Assembly: GCA_963727895.1 (NCBI GenBank)
Contig: CAVSHT010000009.1
Location: 64,001 to 128,000, forward strand
Origin: an uncultured Methanosarcinaceae archaeon
GTDB lineage: Archaea > Halobacteriota > Methanosarcinia > Methanosarcinales > Methanosarcinaceae
Length of the DNA stretch: 64,000 nt
Reading direction: 5' to 3'
In this document: positions 1 through 46,415 of the stretch, piece after piece
How positions within the stretch are numbered: position 1 is the stretch's first letter
Layout: each line of letters starts with the position of its first letter
Position numbers and translations under genes: made by a program
Notes under the pieces: generated by a model
What the model was told of the DNA's origin: nothing
The model's database searches: none
Seen by the model: the letters and a program-made list of their open reading frames with translations, nothing else

Positions 1-390
1 AAGTTTTATGAAGAGCGCCCCTCACAAACTTTCTGATCTCAAAAAAGTTCAAATTATTTGATGTAATATAAATCTAGTCTGTAGCTTATTACATAGGTTC
101 ATATATGTGAGAGATGAATAAATATATTAATCAGGGGCATTTTTTGTGGGTAAGTCATATAAGATATTTTAGATTAGCTCAGGTTATTTGAGCATGTCCA
201 GAAAGATAAGTTAAAAAATAAGAATATTGAAGTAATTAGTTTGGGGTATAAAAGAAAGATATCTCTTTTAGAATCACATGCGGTGAACTGAAAGTATAGA
301 TACTTTACCGGCAGACTTTTGAAAAAAATGGGTGTCAAAATTGAATAGAAAAGAGAGTATAAGTTAGACTTTTTAAAGGGGAAGAGTACT

Positions 391-699
391 ATGGACAGCG
401 TTGTACCGAGAATATTAAAAACTCCAATACTAGCAATGTACCATGACGATAAACACCAACAGCTCACCATGGAAGTTGAACTTCCAGACGTAGAAAGTGA
501 GAATATAACACTGATAATGCATGAAAATAGCTTTTATCTGAAAGCATTCAGTAAAACTGTAGAGTATCTGGGATCTTTTTTTCTAGATGGTCCCGTAGAT
601 CCTGAAAAAGCAATCGCAGTCAACGAAAACGGAATGCTTACTGTTACAGTTCCTTACAAAGAGTGCTTTACATGTGCAAGATATGTTCCTATTGAGTAA
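391..699 (+). CDS. Hsp20/alpha-crystallin family small heat shock protein
   Basis: 102 aa; VELPDV...A..ENGMLTVTVP resembles the alpha-crystallin signature. Confidence 0.75.
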   Translation: MDSVVPRILKTPILAMYHDDKHQQLTMEVELPDVESENITLIMHENSFYLKAFSKTVEYLGSFFLDGPVDPEKAIAVNENGMLTVTVPYKECFTCARYVPIE

Positions 700-829
700 A
701 AAGAATGAGTGGCTTATCGTAAAATATTCCTGAAAAACTTAATTTTATATCATATTAATCTTTATTATGTCTTTATTAAAATTAATAAAGATAATTTTTA
801 TTAAAATTTATTTTTGTAGAGGAGATCTT

Positions 830-1039
830 ATGAAAATAATAAAATGCAGTGATTTGGGGTTCAAGTGTAACTTTATGGCTGCTGGTAACGAACTGGAAGA
901 AGTTGAAAATGCTATGTTAGATCATATAGAAAAAGAACATAAAGAAGAGCTTCAAAGCATGTCCGAAGACGATATTCACCATCTGAAACATCGAATTTCA
1001 ACCCTTCTGGGAAGAAGTTGCGGTTGTGGAGCTCTATAA
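830..1039 (+). CDS. Small metal-binding protein (DUF1059-like)
   Basis: KCSDLGFKCNF...HIEKEH motif; GAGGAG SD before ATG 830. Confidence 0.75.
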   Translation: MKIIKCSDLGFKCNFMAAGNELEEVENAMLDHIEKEHKEELQSMSEDDIHHLKHRISTLLGRSCGCGAL

Positions 1040-1420
1040 TAAGTATACTATAAAGAATAATCCTTTGAAAAATGAAAGTTTACCCTGACCTTTAGGCAAA
1101 CTTTCTTTACATCTTTTTTAACAATTAAGATTTAATTCAGTGCCTTTACTCAAGGATAATGTCCTGAATTTTTAGGCTAAAAACGAGTAAATAAAGATTA
1201 TCCGAGATAAAATTATTAAATAAACCAATTTTGAATAGATCCGAAATTGAATAAAACGTTAAAAACATTTTGTTATGAGTTCAGAATCCAGATGGAGTAA
1301 TTAAGAAACATGGCAAAGCTGACCCATAGGATATAAGGAAATAGTAGATAAGAAGCTATTTTGGAAATTTTTCTGAATATTAATATTGTTACAAATATAG
1401 AAAGCCAGAGAAAAATAATT

Positions 1421-2099
1421 GGAATTGGTAATTAAAAATAGATATATATGCTTATAACATATATTTCTTCATGAACTGCAAAATGTAATAGTTCCAGTCA
1501 CAATAAGAACGATATAGTTGGTGGGCGTCAACGCTACAAATGCCATGATTGTGGATATAACTATGCCCTTGAAGGATTGGGCTTTCGTTCAATAGGACGA
1601 TTTTTAGGGGTGAGTCATGTTTCTGTCCAAAAATAGATAAAGAAATTTGGTCAGGAGTTAGAGAACCTAAAAAGTGAAAATGAGATATCTATTGTTGAAA
1701 TGGATGAGATGCACACTTACATCGGTAACAAAAAAAAATATTGCTGTATCTGGATTGCTGTTGATAGAGTTGGGAAAAAGTTCATCAACTGCTCTTTTGG
1801 TAGCAGAGGAACGGAAACTGGAAAACTACTCTGGGAAATATTGAAGAAAAAAGAGATTGGAGAAGTGATGACAGATCACTGGAGCGCATATGCAGAGTTT
1901 CTTCCAGAAAAGAGTCATACTCAATCAAAAGCAGAAACATCTACAGTTGAGGGATATAACAGCATATTGAGGCACTTTTTGGCAAGGTTGAGAAGAAAGA
2001 CAAAGTGTTATACGAAGAGTCTTGAAATGCTAAAGTACTCGGTTATTCTATTGATGAAATAAAGAAATAAAGAGTTAACTATGTTTAGATACCAATACC
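1421..2099 (+). mobile_element. IS1-family element, defective (copy 1)
   Basis: Ends GGAATTGGTA / TACCAATACC; InsB-like DEMHTY...TDHW...VEGYNS; about 60 bp internal deletion and stops relative to copy 4. Confidence 0.9.
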
Positions 2100-2223
2100 A
2101 AAATTTATACTAATATCTTTTTTGGGGTTTACTTTTGGAGTATAAAGAAGTCTAAACATCTAAGTTAATCAACCAAAATAGGAATTTTTTTACTTAATTC
2201 TGACTATTTTTTCCCAAAATTGA

Positions 2224-2250
2224 GATACACTTCTTGGAAGGAAGTGTATC
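2224..2250 (-). terminator. Hairpin downstream of glnA
   Basis: GATACACTTC-N7-GAAGTGTATC perfect 10-bp stem. Confidence 0.45.
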
Positions 2251-2316
2251 TTCTTAAGTGAGTTTTTAATTTTACCAAAATCACTTTGGTGTTAAGATTT
2301 AGGTTTCTTTGTGTGC

Positions 2317-3660
2317 TTACAGCATATGTAAGTATTTCTCAAGTTCCCATGGGTGAACGATTGCTTTGTACTCGTTCCATTCCATCTCTTTGGCACAGAG
2401 ATAGTTACTGAATACATGATCTCCAAGAGCTTCTTTTACGAAGGCACTGCCTGCCATTTCATCCATTGCTTCTTTAAGATCAGCAGGAAGGGAACGAATA
2501 CCTCTTTCCTTACGCTCCTCTTGTGTGAGGTGGAAAATATTTGTGTCAGTTGATTCCCCTGGATCAATCTTGTTCTTTATTCCATCCAGACCAGCTCTAA
2601 GCATTATGGCGAAAGCAAGGTATGGGTTACATGACGGATCAGGACATCTAAGTTCCACTCTTGTTCCATTTCCACGGGTTGCAGGAATACGGATCAATGA
2701 ACTCCTATTCTTTGAAGACCATGTGATATAGACCGGAGCCTCATATCCTGGTACAATCCTTTTGTAAGAGTTAACAACAGGATTTGTAACAGCTGTAAAT
2801 TCTCTGATATGCTTTAAAAGACCGCCTATGTAGTACATAGCATCCTGAGATAACTGATTTGGGGTATCTGGGTCATAAAAAGCGTTCTTTCTATCCTTGA
2901 AAAGAGACTGGTTACTGTGCATACCTGAGCCGTTTACGCCGAAAAGAGGTTTTGGCATGAAAGTGGCATAATATCCTTTATGATATGCAATTGATTTTAC
3001 CACATATTTGAAAGTTACAACATTGTCAGCCGTGTTGAGTACATCGCTGAATCTAAAGTCTATTTCATGCTGGGAAGGCGCTACTTCGTGATGGGAAGCC
3101 TCTATCTGGAATCCCATAGATTCAAGGGTATAGTCAATATCTCTGCGTACATCCTGTGCAAGGTCAAGGGGTGCAAAATCAAAGTATCCACCCTGGTCTG
3201 TAAGTTCTGTGGTTGGATTTCCGTTTTCATCCAGTTTGAAGAGGAAAAATTCCAGTTCAGGACCCACATTCATTGAGTAACCCATTTTTTCAGCTTCTGC
3301 GATTGCTCTTTTAAGAACATATCTTGGGTCTCCTTCAAATGGTCGACCATCAGGAAGATATACATCTCCAAGGATCCTGGCTACTGCACCGGTTGAAGGT
3401 CTCCATGGAAGAACTCTAAAAGTAGACGGGTCAAGCACAAGTTTCATGTCAGATTCTTCAATCTTTGTAAAGCCCTGGATTGAAGATCCATCAAACATCA
3501 CTCCATTTTCAAAAGCCTCTTCTAACTGTTCAACAGGTATTGCCCAACTTTTGATGATGCCAAGTGTATCCGTAAACTGGGTACGGATAAACTTTACGTC
3601 TCTCTCATTTACAGCCTCTAACACATCTTCTTTGGTTATACACTTTTTTGTCTGCACCAT
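2317..3660 (-). CDS. glnA: Glutamine synthetase type I
   Basis: FDGSSI, GPELEFF, HHEVAPSQHE, FMPKP, NGSGMH, ELRCPD motifs. Confidence 0.97.
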   Translation of the reverse strand: MVQTKKCITKEDVLEAVNERDVKFIRTQFTDTLGIIKSWAIPVEQLEEAFENGVMFDGSSIQGFTKIEESDMKLVLDPSTFRVLPWRPSTGAVARILGDVYLPDGRPFEGDPRYVLKRAIAEAEKMGYSMNVGPELEFFLFKLDENGNPTTELTDQGGYFDFAPLDLAQDVRRDIDYTLESMGFQIEASHHEVAPSQHEIDFRFSDVLNTADNVVTFKYVVKSIAYHKGYYATFMPKPLFGVNGSGMHSNQSLFKDRKNAFYDPDTPNQLSQDAMYYIGGLLKHIREFTAVTNPVVNSYKRIVPGYEAPVYITWSSKNRSSLIRIPATRGNGTRVELRCPDPSCNPYLAFAIMLRAGLDGIKNKIDPGESTDTNIFHLTQEERKERGIRSLPADLKEAMDEMAGSAFVKEALGDHVFSNYLCAKEMEWNEYKAIVHPWELEKYLHML

Positions 3661-3993
3661 TTCACTTCCACTCTAAATCGACACTAGGTATCTTTTTACC
3701 TATTTGCTAATATATATATCTTTTGTAGATATTACTAAAATAAAAGCTATTTACATATTAAATAAGAATAATTACTTCAAAAATAATTGCATGTCATATA
3801 TTCAATTCGCTGAACATATTTCTAATCTCTTCTATATAAAGTTCATTAAAACTCATTCTATAAGGATTGTTTCTTATCATAATTCGATTTTTTTGTCAAG
3901 TGTATGTCTACAAAATGGTATAAATAACAATTATTTAAAATTTTTTTCAATATAATATTAATAACGATTGAAATACATATAAATTCAGATCTA

Positions 3994-4329
3994 ATGGTTC
4001 AAAGAGTTAATTTCTTCAAATTTCTGGTTTCTGTATTGCTCTGCCTGTTTGCAGGAGCAATAGGTTCGACATTTACAGTATCGTCTCTTGATAATTGGTA
4101 TTTTTTGTTAGAAAAACCAACTTTTACTCCTCCATCATGGGTATTCTTTCCTGCTTGGACTATACTTTCTATACTAATGGGACTCTCATTTTATCTCGTT
4201 TGGGTAAAAGGTACTCATGAAAAATATGTTAAAGTTGGATTGCTTATTTTTGGTATTCAGTTAAGCTTTAATCTTCTATGGTCTTTTTTCTTTTTTAATC
4301 TAAGATCTCCTTACTATGCTTTTATATAA
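3994..4329 (+). pseudogene. tspO: TspO/MBR family membrane protein, C-terminally truncated
   Basis: WY..LEKP.FTPP.WVF..AW and QL..N..WS.FFF motifs; stops at 111 aa next to an IS1 end. Confidence 0.8.
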
Positions 4330-4334
4330 ATTTT

Positions 4335-5012
4335 GGTATTGGTATCTAAACATAGTTAACTCTTTATTTCTTTATTTCATCAATAGAATAACCGAGTACT
4401 TTAGCATTTCAAGACTCTTCGTATAACACTTTGTCTTTCTTCTCAATCTTGCCAGGAAATGCCTCAATATGCTGTTATATCCCTCAACTGTAAATGTTTC
4501 TGCTTTGGATTGAGTATGGATCTTTTCTGGAAGAAACTCTGCATATGCTCTCCAGTGATCTGTCATCACTTCTCCAATCTCTTTTTTCTTCAATATTTCC
4601 CAGAGTAGTTTTCCAGTTTCCGTTCCTCTGCTATCAAAAGAGCAGTTGATGAACTTTTTCCCAACTCTATCAACAGCAATTCAGATCCAGCAATATTTTT
4701 TTTGTTACCAATGTAAGTGTGCATCTCATCCATTTCAACAATAGATATCTCATTTTCACTTTTTAGGTTCTCTAACTCCTGACCAAATTTCTTTATCTAT
4801 TTTTGGACAGAAACATGACTCACCCCTAAAAATCGTCCTATTGAACGAAAGCCCAATCCTTCAAGGGCATAGTTATATCCACAATCATGGCATTTGTAGC
4901 GTTGACGCCCACCAACTATACCGTTCTTATTGTGACTGGAACTATTACATTTTGCAGTTCATGAAGAAATATATGTTATAAGCATATATATCTATTTTTA
5001 ATTACCAATGCC
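4335..5012 (-). mobile_element. IS1-family element, defective (copy 2, inverted twin of copy 1)
   Basis: Near-identical to 1421-2099 with the same deletion; flanked by 8-bp direct repeat TAAATTTT (4327-4334, 5013-5020). Confidence 0.92.
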
Positions 5013-5540
5013 TAAATTTTTTATGAAAACATTGGTTTTCAACAATACTTTTTTTATCAAAGAAAATAACACCTGTTTCAATGAGAAATAAAACTAAAAT
5101 CCTGAAAACTGCAGTATAGTAATTGGTTAATGGGAAATTCAAGATAAAAATGTAGAAGAAAGAAAATAATTAAAAGGTTAAAATATTGTTCTTATCAGAA
5201 TTACTCCAAAAACTGTTAACCTGATAAAAAGAAACATATATATATTGTCAAGCAGGTACTAAATAACTTGCTTCCCTTAGTGGTGACCTTCTTAATGCAT
5301 TTAAAGAAGCAAAAGGGTAGTTGCTGTAATTCATATTAATTAGATATTATTTAAATGAGACAAATTTATTAAAAATTCAGAAATTTTGTGAATCGATATA
5401 AAAATTACCTCTGAGCCCCCTGTATCTCAGTTGGCAAGTTTTTTGAACTAGTTCTCAAAAATGAGCCACGGAAATAATTCAGTAAATTATTAACGCATAT
5501 ATATTACATTCATTCCTATCCGATTTTTAGAGTGATCAAA

Positions 5541-9982: not shown

Positions 9983-11679
9983 TTATTGTACCAAACAACC
10001 TGTTTTGACTAATTCAGCTAACTTTAGCATTGAAGAATCGCAGTTAGTGAGCAACTCCCCAAAGTGTAAACGAAGACCTCCTTTTGGCGGAGTTCCACCA
10101 TGATGCGCAACGATAGCAGAACGAAGTTGCCAAAGTTCATTAAGTGGATTAATTATTGTCTTTATATCTTCTTGAGAAATTGAGATATTTTCTAGTATTT
10201 TCCCTAATTGTTTAATTGAAGCAAGACCTTTATCACGACAACCTTTTGTTTCAGCAAGTTTGTTTATATATGAAGTATTTAAGTCTTTGACAATAATCTG
10301 AGAAAGTGATAGAATTTGATCTTCCCATTCTTTACGTGACTCTGTGACTACATAGCCTAAGGATGTCAAGTCCCGTGTTTCTGAAATATTTGGCATTTCC
10401 CATATAGGGCATGGATTTTTCTGTTCATCATGCTGTGGGAATTGTTTGATAGTTATCTTTAGTGAGCTCAGGGGATCGTAGGATGTATCCCATTGACCTT
10501 CAAAGTATGTCTTAAAAGAACGCTGGGAGATTCCAGCTTTCGGTGACTCATTAAAGGATTTCCAATATAATTGTTCTTTAAATGGGAGATGGCTCAAATC
10601 ACATATGTAAACATGGATTTGTCCTTCTTCATTGATATCATATCGTAATGACCAAGCACCTTTACTCTCAATGCAGCGATCATGTATTTTGTAACGTGAA
10701 GGGTCTTGACGATATTTAGATAGAATATCAGGCTTGAAAAAAGCTGGTGACGTCCCAAAAAGATAATCTGAATCTACAAAATAATTTCCAATTTTCTCTG
10801 GATTAGAAGTCCATTCTTGTTCGATCCCATGTTTCCAGTCCCATATGACAAAACTGGCATATTCACGAAGTTCTTTTTCCTTGAGTTTCAATAGCAGTTC
10901 CTCACGAGGTTTCTTACAACGAATGATTTGGACGCCACGAAGGAAACTTGCCAGAGGTTTGTTAGGATCTCCTCTCAGTGTACGAATTGCATAAATCTCG
11001 TGTTCTTCTTCTATCATCTTTTTTCTAGTTCATTCCCGGATAAACTAAATCCCCAATCTAATGATCTAGATACATCAAATAATCTGACTAAACAGGCATC
11101 AGCTAAGAATAAGTAAAAATCTAGTTCTTCTTCACGGAGTGTACACAAGGTAAGGTTATCTTGTTGAATCCAGTTAGCAATTGGTACGATATCTCCAAAT
11201 TAATTCAGTTTACACCAAGCATGTTTCTCCTCAACCCAATGAATATCAAGAACGTGACTAATAAATTGATTGATTTCAATATACGCTTCGTTACTTTTGT
11301 AACCGTGAAAATCTCTCCGAAAGAACAAGAGCAAGCTATCATCGAGTATTTTTGAACCCACATTTTCAATTGGATTGCAAAGGAATGGAACACACTCATC
11401 ATTTGAAAAGGAATATCCATAACCGTAACCGCTACTTACCATGAGATTCCATTTAAGAAGGTCTTCAATATATTCATCCTTCAGCTTTTCTAATGGAACA
11501 ATTAATGAGTAAATAAAAAAATTTTTTTCGCTGATGTATATGGGAAGTTCATCGTCGATGGTATTGAGCAAGAAGCTTAAGGAATCTTCTTGACTGTGCC
11601 AAATTTTAAGATTTTCCTGTGACGAATCAAGGGGCATTTGTTGCTGTTGTAAATAACTTATCTGATTCTTTAATCTCAT
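9983..11679 (-). pseudogene. Large hypothetical protein (about 560 aa) broken by TAA at 11200-11202 and a frameshift near 11017
   Basis: The frame stays open after the TAA (FGDIVPIANWIQQD...) then shifts into the 344-aa ORF; GGAG SD before ATG 11679. Confidence 0.6.
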
Positions 11680-11825
11680 ATGCTCCACTCCAAGAACTTT
11701 GCAATTTATTTCGTAGCAGCTCTCCTGAAGCCAACATAGGCAACAGCCTATAGGCATCTTTTCAACGTTTATAGGGGAACAGATCAACCAACAAATAGGA
11801 AACTTCTAAAGTTAGTTTTTACCAC

Positions 11826-13019
11826 TCAATATACCGGAATCAGTCCTGGGTTGTCGCCGGTAATGCATTCCCCACCTTGATCGGTTACTATAAATGTATT
11901 TTCGATTCCTACCATCCCAATATTTTCAATTCCTTTTTTAGGTTCAAGGGCAAATACCATTCCTTCCTGGAGGGGCTCATCAAACCCTTCTGCAATTACA
12001 GGCAGTTCATCGATTAGCAGTCCAACCGCGTGCCCGAGAAATTTGACTTTACGGTTGCCAAATCCCATGAAGTTATGTAGGAATTCCGAATCGAGATTAC
12101 TTATTATGGTATTGTAGATTTCAGAAGGAATAGATCCAGGTTTTAGCATTGAAGCTGCTTTGTTCTGTAGATCTACACATTTGTTATGGGCATCTATGGC
12201 GTATTGTGGAAGCGAAGAACCAAACATGTATGTTGTCGTTTTATCTGTGTTATAACCTTCAACTCCACATCCGATATCAATGAATACCAGATCTCCTTTT
12301 TTCAGCTTTCTGTCACGACTTCCAATAAGAGGAACCGCAGGACTCATCCCGTAAATTCCGCCAGGACCGTTAAAGTAAGAAGGATAAATCGAGCTTTCAC
12401 CAAAACAGACGTTTCCGAGGACCATTTCGGTATCAAACATCCCAAAACGACATAGTCCATGATGACCTTCTTCAACCATAACTGAATACAGTTCGGTTGA
12501 CAGGCCTACTTCACTCATTCCTTCCTTCAACATTTCAGGTACAAGATCTTCCAGCACATGCTGATGAATCCTTCCAGCTTCTCTTGTTAGCGAGAGTTCA
12601 TATTCGCTTTTTATTGCTCTGACAGCGCAAATTTGAGCGTCAACAGATTTGACATTCTTAAATAGAAAGTGTTTTTGAAACCTCTGGTATAAAGATAGAG
12701 GAACAATTTCAGTTTCAAGGTATACAGTTTCCGGAAGCTCATTTAGATTCTGTGCAGCATCACGAAAACTGCTCATAGGCTTTATATTGGAAAACAAGGA
12801 TTCATCAAGGGCTCTTTCATAGCTGCGGCGTACCCAAAAAGTTGCTTCTCCATTTTTAGGAATGATTAACATTCCATCCTGCATCGTACCTGTAAAATAA
12901 TACAGATTTATTTTGCTGAAGATAACTGCTATTTTCCAGTAGGGGTTTGATATATCCATTCGTTTTTTAAAATTGATCATGCGGTTTTTTAGTTCGGTCA
13001 AAGGTACTTTCTTAATCAT
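11826..13019 (-). CDS. Xaa-Pro peptidase family (M24)
   Basis: DIG...GY.TD.T, GHAVGL..DE.P, ALEPK, GIENT metal ligands. Confidence 0.9.
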
Positions 13020-13227
13020 GGGGATCTCTTTAGGTTATCTGTTATCAATTATAGAAATGTAACTCAGAATAGTGAAAAATGAAAACTAGAAGATCTGTCG
13101 TAGAAAACGTTACTAATAATAAATTTAATATGTAAAATAGTATTAAACCTATATCATAATAAACATTAGATTTTGTTAACAAGTTATTGTCATCAAGTTG
13201 AAGTTAAAAAATCGATGAGATAAAAGT

Positions 13228-14619
13228 ATGAGTAAATCGAAAGAACAAGACTCTCTTATACTAGATCATATTCTGAATGAAACTCAGTATAACAATGTTC
13301 CAAAAAGTTCCGGAGTCTTTATCAGTTACAGTCACGACTCTAGTAAACATGAAGAATGTGTGTTGCAACTTTCAAATCGCTTATGTAGAGAAGGAATTGA
13401 TTCTAATATAGATCAGTACGAAACCTCTCCTTCTGAAGGATGGCCCCGCTGGATGGTCAATCAAATAGATGAAGCTGATTATGTTCTTATAGTATGTACA
13501 GAGAACTATGAAAAACGATTTAAGGGTAAAGAGGAAGCTGGAAAGGGACTTGGAGCAAAGTGGGAAGGCGCGATTATTACACAAGAGCTATACTACTCTG
13601 AAGCTAACAATAAATGTATCCCTATTGTATTTTCTCTTGAAAATTCAAAATATATTCCTTCTATTCTAAAACATGTTACTTACTACAACCCTAGTACAGA
13701 GGAAGATTACATTAAGCTTTATAGCCGTCTTACAGGTCAAAAACTTATTGAAAAACCAGCTATTGGAAAATTAAGGCAGATACCACCAAAAAACATATCT
13801 TCCGTTTTAAGTGCAGAAGATAAAGAAGAAAATTTAATTGAGAGCAAAAAGAAACCTGTAATTGGGAAATTAAGGGAAATAAATAGTGAATCTCAGAGCC
13901 CCAAGATTCCTGAAACTTTCATTAGTGATATTACAGGTATGGAATTTGTTTTGATCCCTGCAGGTGAATTTATGATGGGATCACAAAAGAAAGCTGGTGT
14001 TTTAAATTTTCTAAGGAACTCTACTGAATCCCCAGCTCATGAAGTAACCATTGAGCATCATTTCTATCTCGGTAAATTTCCAGTTACTCAGAAACAGTGG
14101 ATTGCAGTAATGAGTGAAAATTCTTCTAAAATTAAAGACAATAACCGACCAGTAGAAAATATTTTATGGGAGGAAACTCAAGAATTTATTAAACAACTCA
14201 ATGAAATAGAAGGAACTGACAAGTACCGTTTGCCCTCTGAGACTGAATGGGAATACGCCTGTGGAGCTGGTACACAAACAAAGTATTCGTTTGGAGATAA
14301 TGATTCAAAGCTTAATGAATATGCGTGGTACTTTGGTTCCAGTACTACTCAACCAATCGGCAAAAAAGAACCAAATCCCTGGGGTCTTTATGACATGTAT
14401 GGTAATGTGTTCGAACGTGTTCAGGACACTTGGCATAGTAACTATATTGGTGCTCCTTCAGATGGTAGCGCACGGAAAGATAGGGATTCCTCCTGCCAAC
14501 CGATTCGTGGTGGTGCTTTTCATAGTTTTGCAAGAAATTGCAATTCAGCATATCGTTTAAGCGCTAAATTTACTTCTCGAAAAAATGATATCGGGCTTCG
14601 TCTTTTAAGAGAACTATAA
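13228..14619 (+). CDS. SEFIR/TIR domain + FGE-sulfatase (CLec-fold) domain protein
   Basis: VFISYSHDS..H...V..L..RL...GID...DQY, G..WEG (SEFIR); IPAGEF.MGS, RLPSE.EWEYAC, NPWGLYDM.GNV.E, RGG, GLRL (FGE). Confidence 0.9.
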   Translation: MSKSKEQDSLILDHILNETQYNNVPKSSGVFISYSHDSSKHEECVLQLSNRLCREGIDSNIDQYETSPSEGWPRWMVNQIDEADYVLIVCTENYEKRFKGKEEAGKGLGAKWEGAIITQELYYSEANNKCIPIVFSLENSKYIPSILKHVTYYNPSTEEDYIKLYSRLTGQKLIEKPAIGKLRQIPPKNISSVLSAEDKEENLIESKKKPVIGKLREINSESQSPKIPETFISDITGMEFVLIPAGEFMMGSQKKAGVLNFLRNSTESPAHEVTIEHHFYLGKFPVTQKQWIAVMSENSSKIKDNNRPVENILWEETQEFIKQLNEIEGTDKYRLPSETEWEYACGAGTQTKYSFGDNDSKLNEYAWYFGSSTTQPIGKKEPNPWGLYDMYGNVFERVQDTWHSNYIGAPSDGSARKDRDSSCQPIRGGAFHSFARNCNSAYRLSAKFTSRKNDIGLRLLREL

Positions 14620-14755
14620 CTTTTTTATTTCTTGTTTAGATTTCCTGAGTACAGAATTAAAACTTTCACATTTCCTATTATGTTTTAACAAAAAGCTTGA
14701 ACTTTCACCAGAAACAAAAGGTAAGAAACAAAGGAATTTTTGAAAAGGGTTAATT

Positions 14756-15295
14756 ATGTTAAGAAAATTTGAAGATCTTATTGGAACGGCTTCAGGAATG
14801 GGGCTGAAGGCATATCTCTTGGACGCAGGAGATGTCCCGGTTGAGAACAGAGTTGCTTTGAAGTGTGCCTATGGTTGCAAAGGTTATGGGTGTAGATTAA
14901 GTTGCCCACCATATATTATGTCAATTGATGATTTTAAAAAAGTTATAAAGGAATATAGTAGTGCGCTTTTACTTGTAGATGAACATGACACTTCGCAGGT
15001 TCCAGAAATCACGAAAGCCTGGGAGGAAATTCGCAAGGACTCTTTCCATAAAATGTTAGATTTTGAACATCAAGCTTTCAGGGAAGGTTTTACATTTGCT
15101 CATCTCCTCAGGCCAGGTTCCTGCAACGAATGTGATGTTTGCAACCTTGAAAAGTGCATAAAGCCGGAGATGAGGCGTTTTGCACCTGAAGCTGTAGGAA
15201 TAAACCTCCAAAAAGCGATGGAAAAAGCAGGAATTATACTTGAGTTCTGCAAGCCCAAAAAAATCGAATGTATTGGAATTTTGCTGCTTGAATAA
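14756..15295 (+). CDS. DUF2284-type metal-binding protein
   Basis: C.YGC..YG..LSCPP, GSC..C..C, C..PE..R..PEA.GI. Confidence 0.8.
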   Translation: MLRKFEDLIGTASGMGLKAYLLDAGDVPVENRVALKCAYGCKGYGCRLSCPPYIMSIDDFKKVIKEYSSALLLVDEHDTSQVPEITKAWEEIRKDSFHKMLDFEHQAFREGFTFAHLLRPGSCNECDVCNLEKCIKPEMRRFAPEAVGINLQKAMEKAGIILEFCKPKKIECIGILLLE

Positions 15296-43201: not shown

Positions 43202-44194
43202 ATGTCCCGATTTAATCCAATCCTGGCTTTAAGGGCTCTTTGGCAAATTCGAGTACAAAAACGTCCTTTTGTGATGTCACATGGCGTAAATGCTCGCTGC
43301 AATATGCGCTGTAAATTCTGTGAGTACTGGAAGGAAACTGGAGAAGAGCCGACTAAAGAAGAGATTTTTAAATTGTTAGACGACGCAAAAGAATTTGGAA
43401 TAGGAGTCTACAATGCCTGGACTGTAGAACCTCTTCTTAGAGAAGATCTACCCCAAATTATGGCACATGCCAAAGAACTTGGAATGATCACTTCCATGGT
43501 CACAAATGGAAAACTGCTCTATGAAAGAGCAGAAGAGTTGAAGGACGTGGACTTTCTTTCAGTGTCAGTAGATGGGATAGAAAGTTATAAAGAAATTCGT
43601 AAGATGGACTTTGAAACTCTGCTGAAAGGCTTAAAAAAAGCCATTGAAGTGAGAAAGATCCAAAAAAATAGGAATCCTATTTTGATGAACTGTGTACTCA
43701 CAGGAAAAAATCTGGACGATATCGAGACTCTGATATTACTTGCAAAAAAGCTGGGAGTAAAAGTTTCATTTGAACCTGTCCATGAGTTTCCAGGTATCAG
43801 TGAGGAGATCTGGAACGAAATTGGAATCCGTGATATGGAAAAATTCCGCAAAACAGTTGACCGCATAATAGAATTTAAGAAACAACATTACCCTATAATT
43901 AATTCCATAACATACCTCAAAATGGTTCGAGACGGAGAAATGGACTATAAATGCAGAGCCAGTGGAGTTATTATAAATGTGACACACGACGGCACTCTGG
44001 AAACCTGCCGTGTACATAATGAACCCCTTGGAAATGTGATATGGGACGGCTTCGAAAGTGTCTGGGAAAACTCGGAAGAACACAGAAAGGAAATTGTCAA
44101 AAATTGCAGTGGCTGCCTTTTTTTTGGATATACGGAAAACAGTTTGATGCAGAGCTTTAATCCTGAAGTTCTGATGCATTACGAGTGGATGTAA
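43202..44194 (+). CDS. Radical SAM protein with C-terminal SPASM/twitch-like Cys domain
   Basis: CNMRCKFC, EPLLR, TNG, SVDG, C-terminal C..C. Confidence 0.88.
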   Translation: MSRFNPILALRALWQIRVQKRPFVMSHGVNARCNMRCKFCEYWKETGEEPTKEEIFKLLDDAKEFGIGVYNAWTVEPLLREDLPQIMAHAKELGMITSMVTNGKLLYERAEELKDVDFLSVSVDGIESYKEIRKMDFETLLKGLKKAIEVRKIQKNRNPILMNCVLTGKNLDDIETLILLAKKLGVKVSFEPVHEFPGISEEIWNEIGIRDMEKFRKTVDRIIEFKKQHYPIINSITYLKMVRDGEMDYKCRASGVIINVTHDGTLETCRVHNEPLGNVIWDGFESVWENSEEHRKEIVKNCSGCLFFGYTENSLMQSFNPEVLMHYEWM

Positions 44195-44416
44195 ATCCCG
44201 AGTCCCGTCTCGGGAGGACGGCGCCCTTTTCGCTCACTTCGTTCGCTCAAGAGGACTGAACCCGGGGGCAAGAAAAGATATTTTTTAAATTTAGAGCGCT
44301 CAGCACCTCAGTCCCCAGCACCTCAGTCCCGGCGGCTTCGCACGCTTCGTGCCTTCGGGCTTCGCCGAAAAATTACCTACTCCCAAAGCAGTGTAAAGTG
44401 GTAAAGTCGAAAGTGG
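44195..44416. repeat. GC-rich intergenic palindrome and tandem-repeat cluster
   Basis: 15-bp tandem CAGCACCTCAGTCCC x2 (44301-44330), GCACG-CTT-CGTGC hairpin, repeated AAAGTG. Confidence 0.6.
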
Positions 44417-45675
44417 TTACAATTTCCTCAGAAGACGCAAGCCAACGAAGGCGGAGCGGTCGTCGGTGCCGACCCAGCGGTAAGCTGACCGGCAGTACCC
44501 GGCAGAGATGATCCAGCCGCCACCACGTATCACACGGGCGGGGCTATCTCCATCTTCCCAAGCACTACCATCAGAAGGAGCTCCTTCATAATTATTATAC
44601 CATCTGTCCTGAACCCACTCCCAAACAGTTCCATGCATGTCATAAAGGCCCCATAGATTTGGCATCTTTTGTCCAACTGGATGAATTTCACTTCCAGAGT
44701 TATCACTATACCATGCATAATCCCCAAGCTTCGATTCATCATCCCAGAAGAAATACCTTGTTATTGTCCCGGCACGGCACGCGTATTCTCACTCAGCTTC
44801 GGAAGGTGAGCCCATTGAAAAATTTCCGGCTGGGATCAGTACGAAGTCCATTTCTGTAAAAGGACTGGTGAAGGTTTTTGGTATTTCTTGATCTTTGAAA
44901 ACTCTTGGAGTTTCTTGTTCCCTGAATTTCACTAAAACAGGTGAGTATTCGAGTTCTTCATTTTCCAGGTAACATTGGACTGTGTTAATATATGTTTTAA
45001 CACTTATTTTACCTTTTAGAAGATCTTCTAAAGAACTATTAATTTCTTTGTCAGTATCAGTTAATTCTCCTGGTTTCTCATAACCATCAACAAGAACAAT
45101 CATGGATATATTGTAGACATCAATTGGAAGCTCTTTTCTGATTATTCTAGCCAATTTGCGTTTCTTCCTCTTGAAATCCTGCTCTTTGACCTTTAAGGGA
45201 TTCTTTCCAATGAGAACCTTTCCTTCATTATCGACGAAAATAAAAGGAACTTGTGAATATCCAATAGTTTTTTCATAAACATAATTATAAAGATCATCAA
45301 GATTTATGTCGCCGTTATTATCACCAGCAACAGCTCCGCTTTTTAGTCCTTCGACAAAATAATATGTAAAAACACCATTCTCCAGTTTTTCATCTTCTTT
45401 TGCTACATCGAACTCACTAGATGCAGAGAGTATAACAGTACCTGATCCAGAAGACTTAGAAATAATTTCTTTTAAATTATTGCCTTTTATGCTTGCAGCT
45501 CCACTGTAACAGCAATCGAGAACTACAACAGTCTTGCAGCTTGAAGCATCTATACACTTCCTGACCAATGAATAATTCAGAGACGTGGGAATTAAACTAT
45601 CCATCTTCGTATTTTTAAATAATAGACACAGATCATGTTGAGAGTCAGGTTCGCCGTGGCCTGAAAAGTAAATCA
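44417..45675 (-). pseudogene. Caspase-like (peptidase C14) + FGE-sulfatase/CLec protein, disrupted
   Basis: LIYFSGHG and LDCCYSG catalytic dyad, GVFTY; FGE motifs; 5' end cut by IS1; in-frame TGA at 44789; internal deletion. Confidence 0.85.
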
Positions 45676-46415
45676 GGTATTGTTAACTAAACATATTTAA
45701 CTCTTTATTTATGTATTTCATCAATAGAATAACCGAGTACTTTAGCATTTCAAGACTTTTTGTATAACACTTTGTCTTTCTTCTCAACCTTGCTAGAAAA
45801 TGCCTCAATATGCTGTTATATCCTTCAACTGTAAATGTTTCTGCTTTTGATTGAGTATGAATCGTTTCAGGAAGAAACTCTGCATATGCTCTCCAGTGAT
45901 CTGTCATCACTTCTCCAATCTCTTTTTTCTTCAATTTTTCCCAGAGTAGTTTTCCAGTTTCCGTTCCTCTGCTACCAAAAGAGCAGTTGATGAACTTTTT
46001 CCCAACTCTATCAACAGCAATCCAGATCCAGCAATATTTTTTTTGTTACCGATGTAAGTGTGCATTTCATCCATTTCAACAATAGATATCTCATTTTCAC
46101 TTTTTAGGTCCTCTAACTCCTGACCAAATTTCTTTATCCATCTTTAGACAGAAAACATGACTCACCCCTAAAAACCGTCCTATTGAGCGAAAGCCCAATC
46201 CTTCAAGGTAAAGTTGTAAAGCCTGTCTTTTAACAGAGGCGGAAAAATCAGTTGATTTTAGCTCGACTGTATAGTTATAGCCACAATCAGAGCATTTGTA
46301 CCGTTGACGCCCGCCAACTATACCGTTTTTTTGTGACTAGAACTATTACATTTTGGGCAATTCATGAAGAAATATATGTTATAAGCATATATATCTATTT
46401 TTTATTACCAATGCC
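45676..46415 (-). mobile_element. IS1-family element (copy 4, full length about 740 bp)
   Basis: Ends GGTATTG / CCAATGCC; InsA zinc finger, A8 slippery run, InsB. Confidence 0.92.

Follow-up and report, generated by a model that had tools for sequence, protein, structure and literature searches.

A SEFIR domain joined to a lectin-fold FGE module in a Methanosarcinaceae archaeon: a predicted single-protein immune sensor

What might be the role of a gene that couples an immune-type effector domain to a domain of the formylglycine-generating enzyme (FGE) family, and what has shaped its presumed binding surface? Such a gene, which we call SEFIR-FGE, lies in a stretch of 64,000 nucleotides from an uncultured Methanosarcinaceae archaeon (hereafter the window; features in Table 1). 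An earlier note on this DNA had read its product as a SEFIR/TIR domain fused to a C-type-lectin-fold (CLec) domain, and as the second member of a modular family of effectors and sensors. We think it probable that SEFIR-FGE is a bSEFIR-type single-protein sensor that would deplete NAD+ and abort infection, with a lectin-fold specificity that would be fixed in the germline. The assembly (G000), of which the window is C9:64001-128000, comprises 3.67 Mb in 19 contigs, which have 34-40% GC, and is 84% complete; searches of 'the genome' below refer to it.

The SEFIR head and the FGE module

The open reading frame (ORF) starts with ATG, has no internal stop, and has full-length homologues ranging from 87% down to 39% identity. 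Pfam places SEFIR at residues 30-154 (E-value 3.6e-17, 63.5 bits) and, more weakly, TIR_2 (5.1e-13, 50.0 bits). The PADLOC bSEFIR model (PDLC03957) matches with an E-value of 1.2e-54, residues 27-235 corresponding to profile positions 38-246 of 412, so that the match includes about 80 residues after the SEFIR domain, the linker among them. Compared by sequence with solved structures, the head matches the Bacillus cereus SEFIR domain 5y8e (3.3e-12). A Foldseek search with a model of residues 1-235 (mean predicted local distance difference test score, pLDDT, 67; core blocks 80-92) puts the prokaryotic SEFIR structures 5y8e/5y8f on top (1.7e-7), with chains of the IL-17RA/RB/ACT1 SEFIR assembly at ranks 3-6. 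SARM1, BtTir, PdTIR, SPARTA and AbTir come below the SEFIR structures, with values of 4e-4 to 3e-3 for SARM1, BtTir, PdTIR and AbTir. In this comparison the head shows the TIR/SEFIR (STIR) fold of the NAD+-cleaving TIR-type class. The Thoeris ThcB4 model reaches 17 bits on the protein, against a cut-off of 220. Pfam, PADLOC and Foldseek thus agree on an intact SEFIR/TIR domain, as the earlier note had claimed, and the possibility it had raised against itself, that neither profile nor structure would recognize one, falls away. Because the head matches the bSEFIR model, scores higher as SEFIR than as TIR_2 and finds its nearest fold among prokaryotic SEFIR domains, we read the protein as bSEFIR-type.

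Residues that do not vary among 27 SEFIR-FGE homologues, nor in a broader alignment of 30 rows with distant SEFIR/TIR proteins of the archaeal family, include F31, I32, S33, Y34, C90, T91 and E113. The last of these, unchanged in 27/27 homologues and in 30/30 rows, is by its invariance the likely candidate for the catalytic glutamate. Between head and FGE module, residues 173-225 of the linker are predicted to be disordered (pLDDT <50). The linker carries a short motif, K-P-x-I-G-K-L-R, in two copies: copy 1 is kept in all 27 homologues, with G180 invariant, and copy 2 is confined to a close clade, probably archaeal. Since the sequence shows no hydrophobic segment at the N-terminus, a cytoplasmic location is probable.

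The FGE-sulfatase model of Pfam covers residues 239-461 (6.4e-40). By sequence and by fold alike, the nearest solved chains are PvdO (5hha) and TvpA (2y3c), a variable protein of Treponema denticola diversified by a diversity-generating retroelement (DGR). Foldseek gives 1.3e-19 for PvdO and 2.5e-17 for TvpA, true FGEs following at about 1e-12 to 1e-13. Catalysis by FGE requires both active-site cysteines. Aligned with the T. curvata enzyme (6s07), the C-x4-C pair is replaced in SEFIR-FGE by Ser433 and Cys438: the FGE-sulfatase fold is there and the second cysteine alone is kept, which is also the state of TvpA in the same alignment output. Every NCBIfam equivalog scores far under its cut-off (PvdO 128.7 against 500, EgtB 35 against 360). 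Because of the lost cysteine, the nearest structures and the equivalog scores, we predict that the FGE domain is a non-enzymatic binding module. These nearest folds, 5y8e/5y8f for the head and 5hha/2y3c for the FGE domain, come from the structure modelling that the earlier note had proposed.

The tail of this module takes the position of the variable region (VR) of DGR targets. Over 11 close sequences the tail has a column entropy of 1.8, compared with 0.87 for the FGE core and 0.52 for SEFIR, so that residues 430-455 form the fastest-evolving patch across this clade; like DGR variable proteins, SEFIR-FGE combines a C-terminal CLec/FGE domain with a variable tail patch. The three nearest orthologues share 20-22 of the 26 tail residues, the tail being as conserved as the rest of the protein. 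Variability of this kind across the clade would show the pattern of a contact surface under ordinary diversifying evolution.

In the mechanism that we propose, the lectin-fold domain, with its last ~30 residues as the ligand-contact surface, would bind a ligand in the cytoplasm, for which a protein or glycan from an invading virus, or from another mobile element, is the most likely candidate. Binding would cluster the proteins and allow the N-terminal SEFIR domains to assemble; the assembled domains would cleave NAD+ to ADP-ribose and nicotinamide, E113 being the likely catalytic residue, and the loss of NAD+ would stall or kill the infected cell before the invader multiplies. We infer the NADase activity, the oligomerization trigger, the nature of the ligand and the antiviral role. 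The gene itself presumably reached its intergenic site among housekeeping genes as a single-gene cassette of 1.65 kb, and its FGE module may derive from an archaeal pool that DGRs diversify on caspase and KAP-NTPase heads in relatives, this copy presumably being independent of DGRs. The genomic setting and the comparison with sister genes bear on these last two steps.

A single-gene insert among housekeeping genes

The window also carries Hdr, F420-dependent, glutamine/glutamate and ribosomal genes, and contig C13 shows synteny with 20 kb of Methanosarcina sp. Mfa9 (73-78% DNA identity); we accordingly regard the organism as a Methanosarcina-like methanogen. The two genes that flank SEFIR-FGE, encoding an M24 peptidase and a DUF2284 protein, are separated by 270-404 bp at 19 of 24 congeneric loci; among the other five, three have a repeat-protein gene in between and two end before the site can be resolved. 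Likeness to the relatives' intergenic DNA ends at 13064-13081 and restarts at 14710-14737 (9/9 congeneric loci compared). Because similarity breaks at both ends in nine relatives, we take about 1.65 kb to be specific to this genome: the gene, some 150 bp of AT-rich upstream DNA and a T-rich run after the stop codon that is likely an archaeal oligo-T terminator.

Metagenome contigs of relatives show the empty site, with junctions 13025>14712, 13058>14737 and 13031>14756; these contigs were placed at an 85% likeness threshold and so belong to other organisms. Another relative's contig of 1267 nt (82 differences) spans from 13003 into the gene and has the same insertion. The relative with the insertion and relatives with the empty site are present in the same sequencing run. 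The best run shared 0.30 of the words of the stretch, and the uncovered parts of runs carry no meaning. Inspection of the insert ends, by eye only, revealed no convincing flanking repeats or target duplication.

Among the matches listed for 121 genomes of the family, full-length SEFIR-FGE is found in two: the present assembly and a second genome (G118), whose orthologue (64% identity) stands at another locus, beside LPG synthase, DUF7286, SDR and transposase genes. Since the insert is missing at 19 of the 24 congeneric loci and the G118 orthologue lies elsewhere, SEFIR-FGE is a patchy, mobile accessory gene, outside any defence island.

The same intergenic space looks like a recurrent landing site. 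In three of the 24 congeners (L126, L133, L135; equivalent of 13020-14755) it houses a different inserted gene, whose product consists of ~20-residue repeats with a K-P-R-Y-I-P-G-F-W motif. On the other side of the M24 peptidase gene, between it and a FrhB-like gene, two ORFs (9983-11017 and 11200-11787; 344 and 195 residues) occupy a low-GC stretch (0.33-0.39) and may be a second foreign insert.

Table 1. Features of the window and other FGE loci of the genome
Feature	Position	Strand	Basis or remark
SEFIR-FGE gene, intact, 463 aa	13228..14619	+	Uninterrupted ORF, domain matches, full-length homologues
SEFIR domain, predicted NAD+-cleaving effector, residues 29-170	13312..13737	+	Pfam, PADLOC bSEFIR, PDB sequence match, Foldseek
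Linker, low-confidence, residues 171-235	13738..13932	+	pLDDT, alignment columns
FGE-sulfatase / C-type-lectin-fold domain, predicted ligand-binding sensor, residues 239-461	13942..14610	+	Pfam, PDB, Foldseek
Tail, position-equivalent of DGR VR, residues 430-455	14515..14592	+	Column entropy, codon counts, template-repeat comparison
T-rich run right after stop, carried by insert	14620..14640	+	Read from sequence
Genome-specific single-gene insert, approximate bounds	13077..14709	.	Comparison with congeneric intergenic DNA, metagenome contigs
M24 peptidase gene, left flank of insert	11826-13019	-	
DUF2284 gene, right flank of insert	14756-15295	+	
Caspase-FGE paralogue, pseudogene, by its sequence a former DGR target	44417..45604	-	TGA, deletion, caspase match, template-repeat comparison
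IS1 transposase fragment in place of caspase N-terminus	45683..45934	-	Pfam DDE_Tnp_IS1 4.5e-10, NCBIfam IS1 1.7e-15
SEFIR-FGE, one of five FGE loci	window		Intact
ORF of 301 aa	contig C7		Linker + FGE only, IS1 pieces adjoining
Caspase-FGE	contig C7		Broken into several ORFs
ORF of 240 aa	contig C16		FGE only, tail diverged

Sister modules, retroelement footprints and head swapping

The second FGE gene of the window, at 44417-45604, had been named in the earlier note as a paralogue of SEFIR-FGE, and the motif pairs quoted there are present. BLASTP gives the FGE part of SEFIR-FGE 55% identity with the paralogue's C-terminal piece (124 columns) and 47% with the N-terminal one (53 columns); at the DNA level identity is 69% over 278 nt. 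This paralogue is real but is not an intact member of the family, being a pseudogene: an in-frame TGA stands at 44789-44791, the equivalents of FGE residues 257-341 (about 85 residues) are missing, and the caspase match (NF047832, 5.3e-18) starts in mid-domain after a fragment of the insertion sequence IS1. The pseudogene adjoins radical-SAM/rpl12/rpl10/rpl1 genes, as live DGR targets do in relatives.

Enumeration of the genome's FGE genes and their heads, as the earlier note had suggested, returned six FGE-sulfatase matches at five loci. Because the other caspase-FGE copies are or may be pseudogenes, the repertoire of this genome is reduced to a single intact effector fusion plus wrecks; the archaeal sensor repertoire that the earlier note envisaged would lie in the family rather than here. 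IS1-family pieces lie beside each broken caspase-FGE copy and beside one broken group II intron reverse transcriptase (RT) gene (window 45683-45934; contig C7, L001 426-677 and 2788-3180; L005 2982-3167; contig C4, L008 2981-3415), and the sensor genes of this genome seem to have decayed through the activity of IS1.

Composition of the tails sets SEFIR-FGE apart from its sisters. Of 24 FGE genes examined in the family, 22 have 12-24 codons ending in C (NNC) among the 35 of the tail, and a tail GC of 0.49-0.74 against 0.38-0.53 for the remainder of the gene. The two exceptions are both SEFIR-FGE genes, one with 3/35 (GC 0.38) and one with 5/35 (GC 0.44). When aligned, the tails of the family reveal a common DNA scaffold with NNC codons at set places.

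A non-coding copy of such a tail occurs in the complete genome of another genus (G028). Located at L142:8037-8162 (G028:C1:403036-403161), ~320 bp downstream of a caspase-FGE gene, it departs from the caspase-FGE tail at 21/35 adenines but only 1/91 other sites, and from the adjoining KAP-FGE tail at 14/35 adenines and 5/91 other sites. To judge from its sequence, this copy bears the signature of a DGR template repeat (TR). Comparable pairs of TR and VR are found in G007, a congener of the window genome (25/36 adenines and 2/90 other sites differ), in G067 (17/33 and 1/91) and, in an eroding state, in G013 (26/36 and 20/90); TR-like copies with 10-11 AAC codons are present in 5 of the 121 family genomes. 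Positive controls for the TR/VR test were five of 78 bacterial loci together with G007, G028 and G067.

G007 further holds a full cassette, in the order KAP NTPase, FGE target, HRDC protein, Avd, RT and TR (L207, G007:C2:1-9000, minus strand 374-5196), in which Avd matches NF033474 above its cut-off (3.3e-29). The link to DGRs that the earlier note had named for effector-CLec proteins of multicellular bacteria is thus borne out in relatives by both TR/VR pairs and an Avd-RT-TR cassette. The RT frame of this cassette contains a single in-frame TAG (1140-1142), which may represent pyrrolysine, read-through or a fresh nonsense mutation; the relatives have pyrrolysine genes. A second, different DGR lineage occurs in the family at L208 (G076:C101:4132-6337), where Avd and a GIY-YIG-like ORF of small size are accompanied by an RT that has no interruption but is cut off by the contig end, and by a target whose CLec tail is of another type.

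Avd was found in only 2 of the 121 genomes. That GC- and NNC-rich tails occur in 22 of the 24 genes, across several genera, but Avd so rarely, suggests that many FGE genes are DGR targets either fossil or served in trans. In the complete genome of G028 the VRs are very fresh, yet Avd has no match; of two RVT_1 matches, the one that was scored fits group II RT/maturase, and the other lies in a frame of 592 aa. Its DGR machinery would either have been lost very recently or act in trans from an extrachromosomal element.

Several candidates for missing DGR parts were rejected. RTs of 404-445 residues in the present genome, G028 and G116 score as group II RT/maturase (TIGR04416, 290-334 bits), and a 392-aa ORF after the TR in G104 and G013 encodes an AAA/ATPase_2 protein, not an RT. 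The gene of this protein lies ~330 bp past the TR-like repeat (L204:10757-11935 in G104, L205:9923-11101 in G013), and no VR partner of the G104 repeat was found within the 19 kb examined.

How do the two FGE tails of the window compare with these templates? The G028 locus (KAP-FGE, caspase-FGE, TR, radical SAM, rpl10, rpl1) is syntenic with the window pseudogene. Against the G028 TR, the pseudogene tail (44417-44560, minus strand) shows changes at 22/33 adenines but only 9/90 other sites; 20 of its 35 codons end in C, with a GC of 0.67, against 11/83 and 0.45 in the rest. The ~660 bp that hold the TR in G028 are absent from the window between the radical-SAM gene and the pseudogene (43202-44416). 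The caspase-FGE pseudogene can accordingly be recognized, from these sequence comparisons, as a former DGR target.

Retrohoming returns non-adenine sites to the template sequence. The SEFIR-FGE tail still aligns codon by codon with the relatives' TR scaffold, but it differs from the G028 TR at 49 of 91 non-adenine sites as well as at 19 of 35 adenines, and 3/35 of its codons end in C (GC 0.38), against 58/423 in the rest of the gene (GC 0.36). The G118 orthologue likewise lacks a DGR footprint. Neither a TR-like second copy of the tail nor Avd (NF033474, 0 matches) nor a DGR-type RT was found in the 84% complete assembly. Its five RVT_1 matches, at three loci, are all group-II-like: two loci contain broken ORFs that we read by eye as group II intron RTs, and the third, beside a CRISPR array, matches the group II RT/maturase model TIGR04416 (1.7e-87). 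At this third locus (L007, C11:157271-160906), the RT, with 364 residues from the first start in a 404-aa frame, has next to it an ORF of 227 aa as well as a CRISPR-like array whose repeats are 36 nt long; the pair of RT and 227-aa ORF recurs in G028, and a like RT in G116 adjoins a 258-aa ORF.

Because the non-adenine scaffold is lost and third codon positions have come to the AT-rich usage of the genome, the SEFIR-FGE tail would either have been long free of DGR input or never have been DGR-fed. In the earlier note the tail was described as AT-rich, without NNC bias, and 'frozen or ameliorated'. The missing bias stands, all the more beside the 20/35 of the pseudogene tail; the GC of 0.38 is correct but is merely the norm of this genome; and the absence of a DGR footprint fits the last description, which names only one option, a module never fed by a DGR being equally compatible.

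Where, then, does the combination of head and module come from? FGE-module matches (E <= 1e-10) occur in 74 of the 121 family genomes, as many as 13 in a single genome and frequently in tandem. The modules are always C-terminal, and the heads sampled include caspase, KAP NTPase, SEFIR and long N-termini without a Pfam match; one C-terminal module is thus borne by different immune-type effectors within the same archaeal family, as had been proposed. The caspase-FGE proteins sampled have ~590 residues, and their gene lies beside an NFACT gene, like the broken C7 copy of the present genome. SEFIR occurs in 10 of the 121 genomes. Its C-terminal partners include FGE (in the two genomes mentioned), NB-ARC/STAND and an S-layer-like region, and one Ras/Roc protein bears SEFIR at its C-terminus. 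In a large protein collection, 54 of the best 120 matches combine SEFIR with FGE-sulfatase, including cyanobacterial and acidobacterial proteins, and close SEFIR heads (66-69% identity) are also found on other C-termini. A loci search with the SEFIR-FGE alignment returned nearly exclusively FGE-only loci, with the full architecture in 1 of 78 (L036).

A quick IQ-TREE phylogeny of 75 FGE domains, with SH-aLRT support, groups all 26 family modules with all 12 close SEFIR-FGE proteins and 10 other-headed proteins in one clade (support 98), and leaves 15 bacterial SEFIR-FGE proteins outside the archaeal-family clade. Within the clade the SEFIR label requires five changes, at least three of these changes being forced by starred branches. 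Monophyly of the 27 SEFIR-bearing FGE rows is rejected by the approximately unbiased (AU) test (delta lnL 199.95, p-AU 5e-61), which was run after tree inspection with groups named beforehand. Furthermore, the homologue P0005 agrees with the window protein at 124 of 142 residues in SEFIR, against 111 of 191 in the FGE core. From the tree, the AU test and this mismatch between head and core, we conclude at the sequence level that heads and FGE sensors have recombined repeatedly. The tree of the FGE module was another of the checks suggested in the earlier note, and it supports the wider family of swapped effectors on which that note depended.

In many cases up to six FGE genes follow one another in tandem, and their neighbours include ATPase_2/DUF234, TPR-kinase and AAA genes (L138-L144, L093-L095, L101, L102). 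A recurrent 183-aa ORF beside FGE genes at four loci was considered as a conserved partner and dismissed, the proteins being unrelated save for one orthologous pair.

These results allow a further, tentative reading, which we regard as possible but rather doubtful. SEFIR-FGE may have branched off when a bSEFIR NADase head recombined with a DGR-fed module, its once-hypermutable tail now serving as a fixed, inherited specificity; behind it would stand a chromosomal Methanosarcina-type repertoire of lectin-fold sensors on caspase and KAP NTPase death effectors, now mostly fossil.

Alternative readings, known systems and significance

Could the specificity of SEFIR-FGE be hypermutated after all, the gene being a present or recent DGR target whose TR and RT belong to the 16% of the genome that is missing from the assembly, or to a virus or plasmid? 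Its FGE module does fall within an archaeal clade whose other members are DGR targets, its tail retains the codon alignment with the relatives' TR scaffold, only 84% of the genome is at hand, and the fresh VRs of G028 (1/91 non-adenine differences), found without Avd or a DGR-type RT, make trans-acting machinery conceivable. Against this, the tail has 49/91 non-adenine differences where true or recent VRs have 1-9 of about 90, and 3/35 NNC codons where 22 other family FGE genes have 12-24; its third codon positions have drifted to the AT-rich usage of the genome, and its three closest orthologues keep 20-22 of the 26 tail residues. With no TR-like copy and no Avd in the assembly, RTs that are only group-II-like, and no footprint in the G118 orthologue either, we hold present or recent DGR input to be very unlikely. 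We consider extremely improbable a metabolic or maturation enzyme of the FGE/PvdO/EgtB type with an added protein-interaction domain. Homologues are annotated 'formylglycine-generating enzyme required for sulfatase activity' or 'SUMF1/EgtB/PvdO family nonheme iron enzyme', and PvdO is the best solved match, but one of the two FGE cysteines is gone, every equivalog remains far under its cut-off, there is no EgtB-type N-terminal domain, the N-terminus is an immune effector domain, and the gene is a patchy accessory insert without biosynthetic neighbours.

Two other readings accept an immune-type protein and differ on how, or against what, it acts. The SEFIR domain might be a non-catalytic adaptor, as in IL-17R/Act1, that recruits another TIR/SEFIR protein or effector homotypically: animal SEFIR domains signal via homotypic assembly and the IL-17RA/RB/ACT1 chains rank 3-6 by fold; defence was lost on mutating a residue predicted for SEFIR-SEFIR contact, as described in the Millman preprint (10.1101/2022.05.11.491447); and contig C4 of the genome carries a further pair of TIR_2 ORFs. 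These ORFs are, however, on another contig, SEFIR-FGE is the sole SEFIR-model match in the genome and arrived alone as a one-gene cassette, the Osterman preprint reports that bSEFIR depletes NAD+ through its own SEFIR domain, and the glutamate E113 is invariant, so that the adaptor role appears improbable. It also seems unlikely to us that SEFIR-FGE serves recognition of self, non-self or damage in cell aggregates (programmed death or kin discrimination) instead of antiviral defence. According to the texts of PMC7159879 and PMC10907252, systems of FGS/CLec domains with effectors are tied to multicellular or aggregating prokaryotes, with Methanosarcina mazei among the few archaeal cases, and sister modules carry caspase heads. 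Yet the sequence shows neither a signal peptide nor a membrane segment, which would have the sensor face the cytoplasm, and a presence in 2 of 121 family genomes among the matches listed fits an accessory defence gene better than a developmental one.

Several points weigh against our own reading of SEFIR-FGE as a bSEFIR-type NAD+-depleting sensor. Positions 247-412 of the bSEFIR profile are unmatched, the presumed phage-sensing part being absent and replaced. The aspartate of the Millman D40A mutant could not be mapped onto the protein: aligned with B. cereus 5y8e, D37 stands opposite Ser and K40 opposite Asp. The structure models have middling confidence (mean pLDDT 70 and 67), and PvdO, which among solved structures is nearest to the sensor domain, is part of a biosynthetic pathway; the fold would therefore be compatible with an enzyme- or chaperone-like role. 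The neighbours (M24 peptidase, DUF2284, F420 oxidoreductase, HdrCB, glutamate synthase) are housekeeping genes, without the defence-island enrichment of the bSEFIR family, and the nearby ORFs at 9983-11017 and 11200-11787 (both minus strand) have no Pfam or PADLOC match. An RNA library yields two low-depth 151-nt contigs, with one difference each, at 14525-14675 and 14691-14840; covering the 3' end of SEFIR-FGE and the start of the DUF2284 gene, they are a weak hint of transcription at best and no proof of expression. Activity, phenotype and ligand are predictions.

The two further TIR_2 ORFs of the genome (C4:421982-422338, minus strand, and C4:432702-433052, plus strand) lie ~10 kb apart in frames of 544 and 233 residues and may mark a defence island.

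The design is not new in kind. C-terminal FGS/CLec sensors with swappable N-terminal effectors, often DGR-fed, have been described as the constant arrangement of such systems in multicellular bacteria (PMC7159879, PMC10907252), and Methanosarcina mazei is named as a rare archaeal case of these conflict systems. A single-gene SEFIR system from Bacillus sp. NIO-1130 is active against phi29 and has homologues in M. barkeri and M. mazei, the family being selected by an N-terminal SEFIR score above the TIR score (Millman preprint, 10.1101/2022.05.11.491447). The Osterman preprint describes bSEFIR as a single-protein system whose N-terminal SEFIR domain depletes NAD+, and bSEFIR/SEFIR is counted among NADase domains elsewhere (10.64898/2026.09.04.749371). 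DGRs were reported in 20 of 3,038 archaeal metagenome-assembled genomes in a text that does not name methanogens (PMC11661182), and the main text of Roux 2021 makes no mention of methanogens or Methanosarcin-, although its supplements may list cases. In the searchable literature, which calls archaeal DGRs rare, we found no description of DGR targets in methanogens and none of a pairing of SEFIR with formylglycine/FGE-sulfatase domains, though supplements may list such cases.

With bSEFIR, then, SEFIR-FGE shares an N-terminal SEFIR domain that outscores TIR (63.5 against 50.0 bits), the ~80 profile residues that follow and the plan of a head plus a C-terminal module in one polypeptide. It differs in that an FGE/CLec domain replaces profile positions 247-412, so that the match does not extend over the whole length, whereas canonical-length relatives cover positions 32-380 (P0072) or 35-318 (a 337-aa congener protein); furthermore, its host is an archaeon. 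With TvpA (2y3c) and with TIR- or peptidase-headed CLec targets of DGRs in multicellular bacteria, it has in common the FGE-type CLec fold, C-terminal to an effector head; DGR variable proteins also share the second FGE cysteine alone and a variable tail patch, and sister genes in the archaeal family are true DGR targets. The head here is SEFIR, however, and SEFIR-FGE lacks a cognate TR, an adenine-specific pattern and NNC/GC enrichment, with neither Avd nor a DGR RT found in the assembly. TIR NADases (SARM1, bacterial TIRs, Thoeris ThsB, TIR-APAZ/SPARTA) have a related flavodoxin-like fold, and we propose the same chemistry and activation by assembly; SEFIR structures match the head better than any TIR, and E113 is the putative catalytic residue. 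In true FGE (SUMF1; T. curvata 6s07) the fold and Pfam family are the same, and the first copper-binding cysteine is a serine in SEFIR-FGE. By these sequence comparisons, SEFIR-FGE has the head of bSEFIR, only the fold of a DGR target and no longer the active site of FGE.

An immediate consequence concerns annotation, since sources name proteins of this type formylglycine-generating enzymes. If our reading is true, SEFIR-FGE would be an archaeal one-protein, NAD+-depleting immune sensor built of two swappable parts, the sensor part being a lectin fold that retroelements hypermutate in sister genes. Fixed and hypermutated sensors on one scaffold would offer a natural comparison, and Methanosarcina is genetically tractable. 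Possibly the more valuable lead is the context that the gene exposes: live and fossil DGR sensor repertoires in Methanosarcina-type archaea, with true TR/VR pairs on caspase- and KAP-NTPase-headed sensors in congeners and sister genera. If SEFIR-FGE is indeed an offshoot of such a repertoire, it would illustrate a natural shift from an 'adaptive-like' to an 'innate-like' receptor, one that in this genome would have outlived the decay of the DGR, its TR and all DGR targets.

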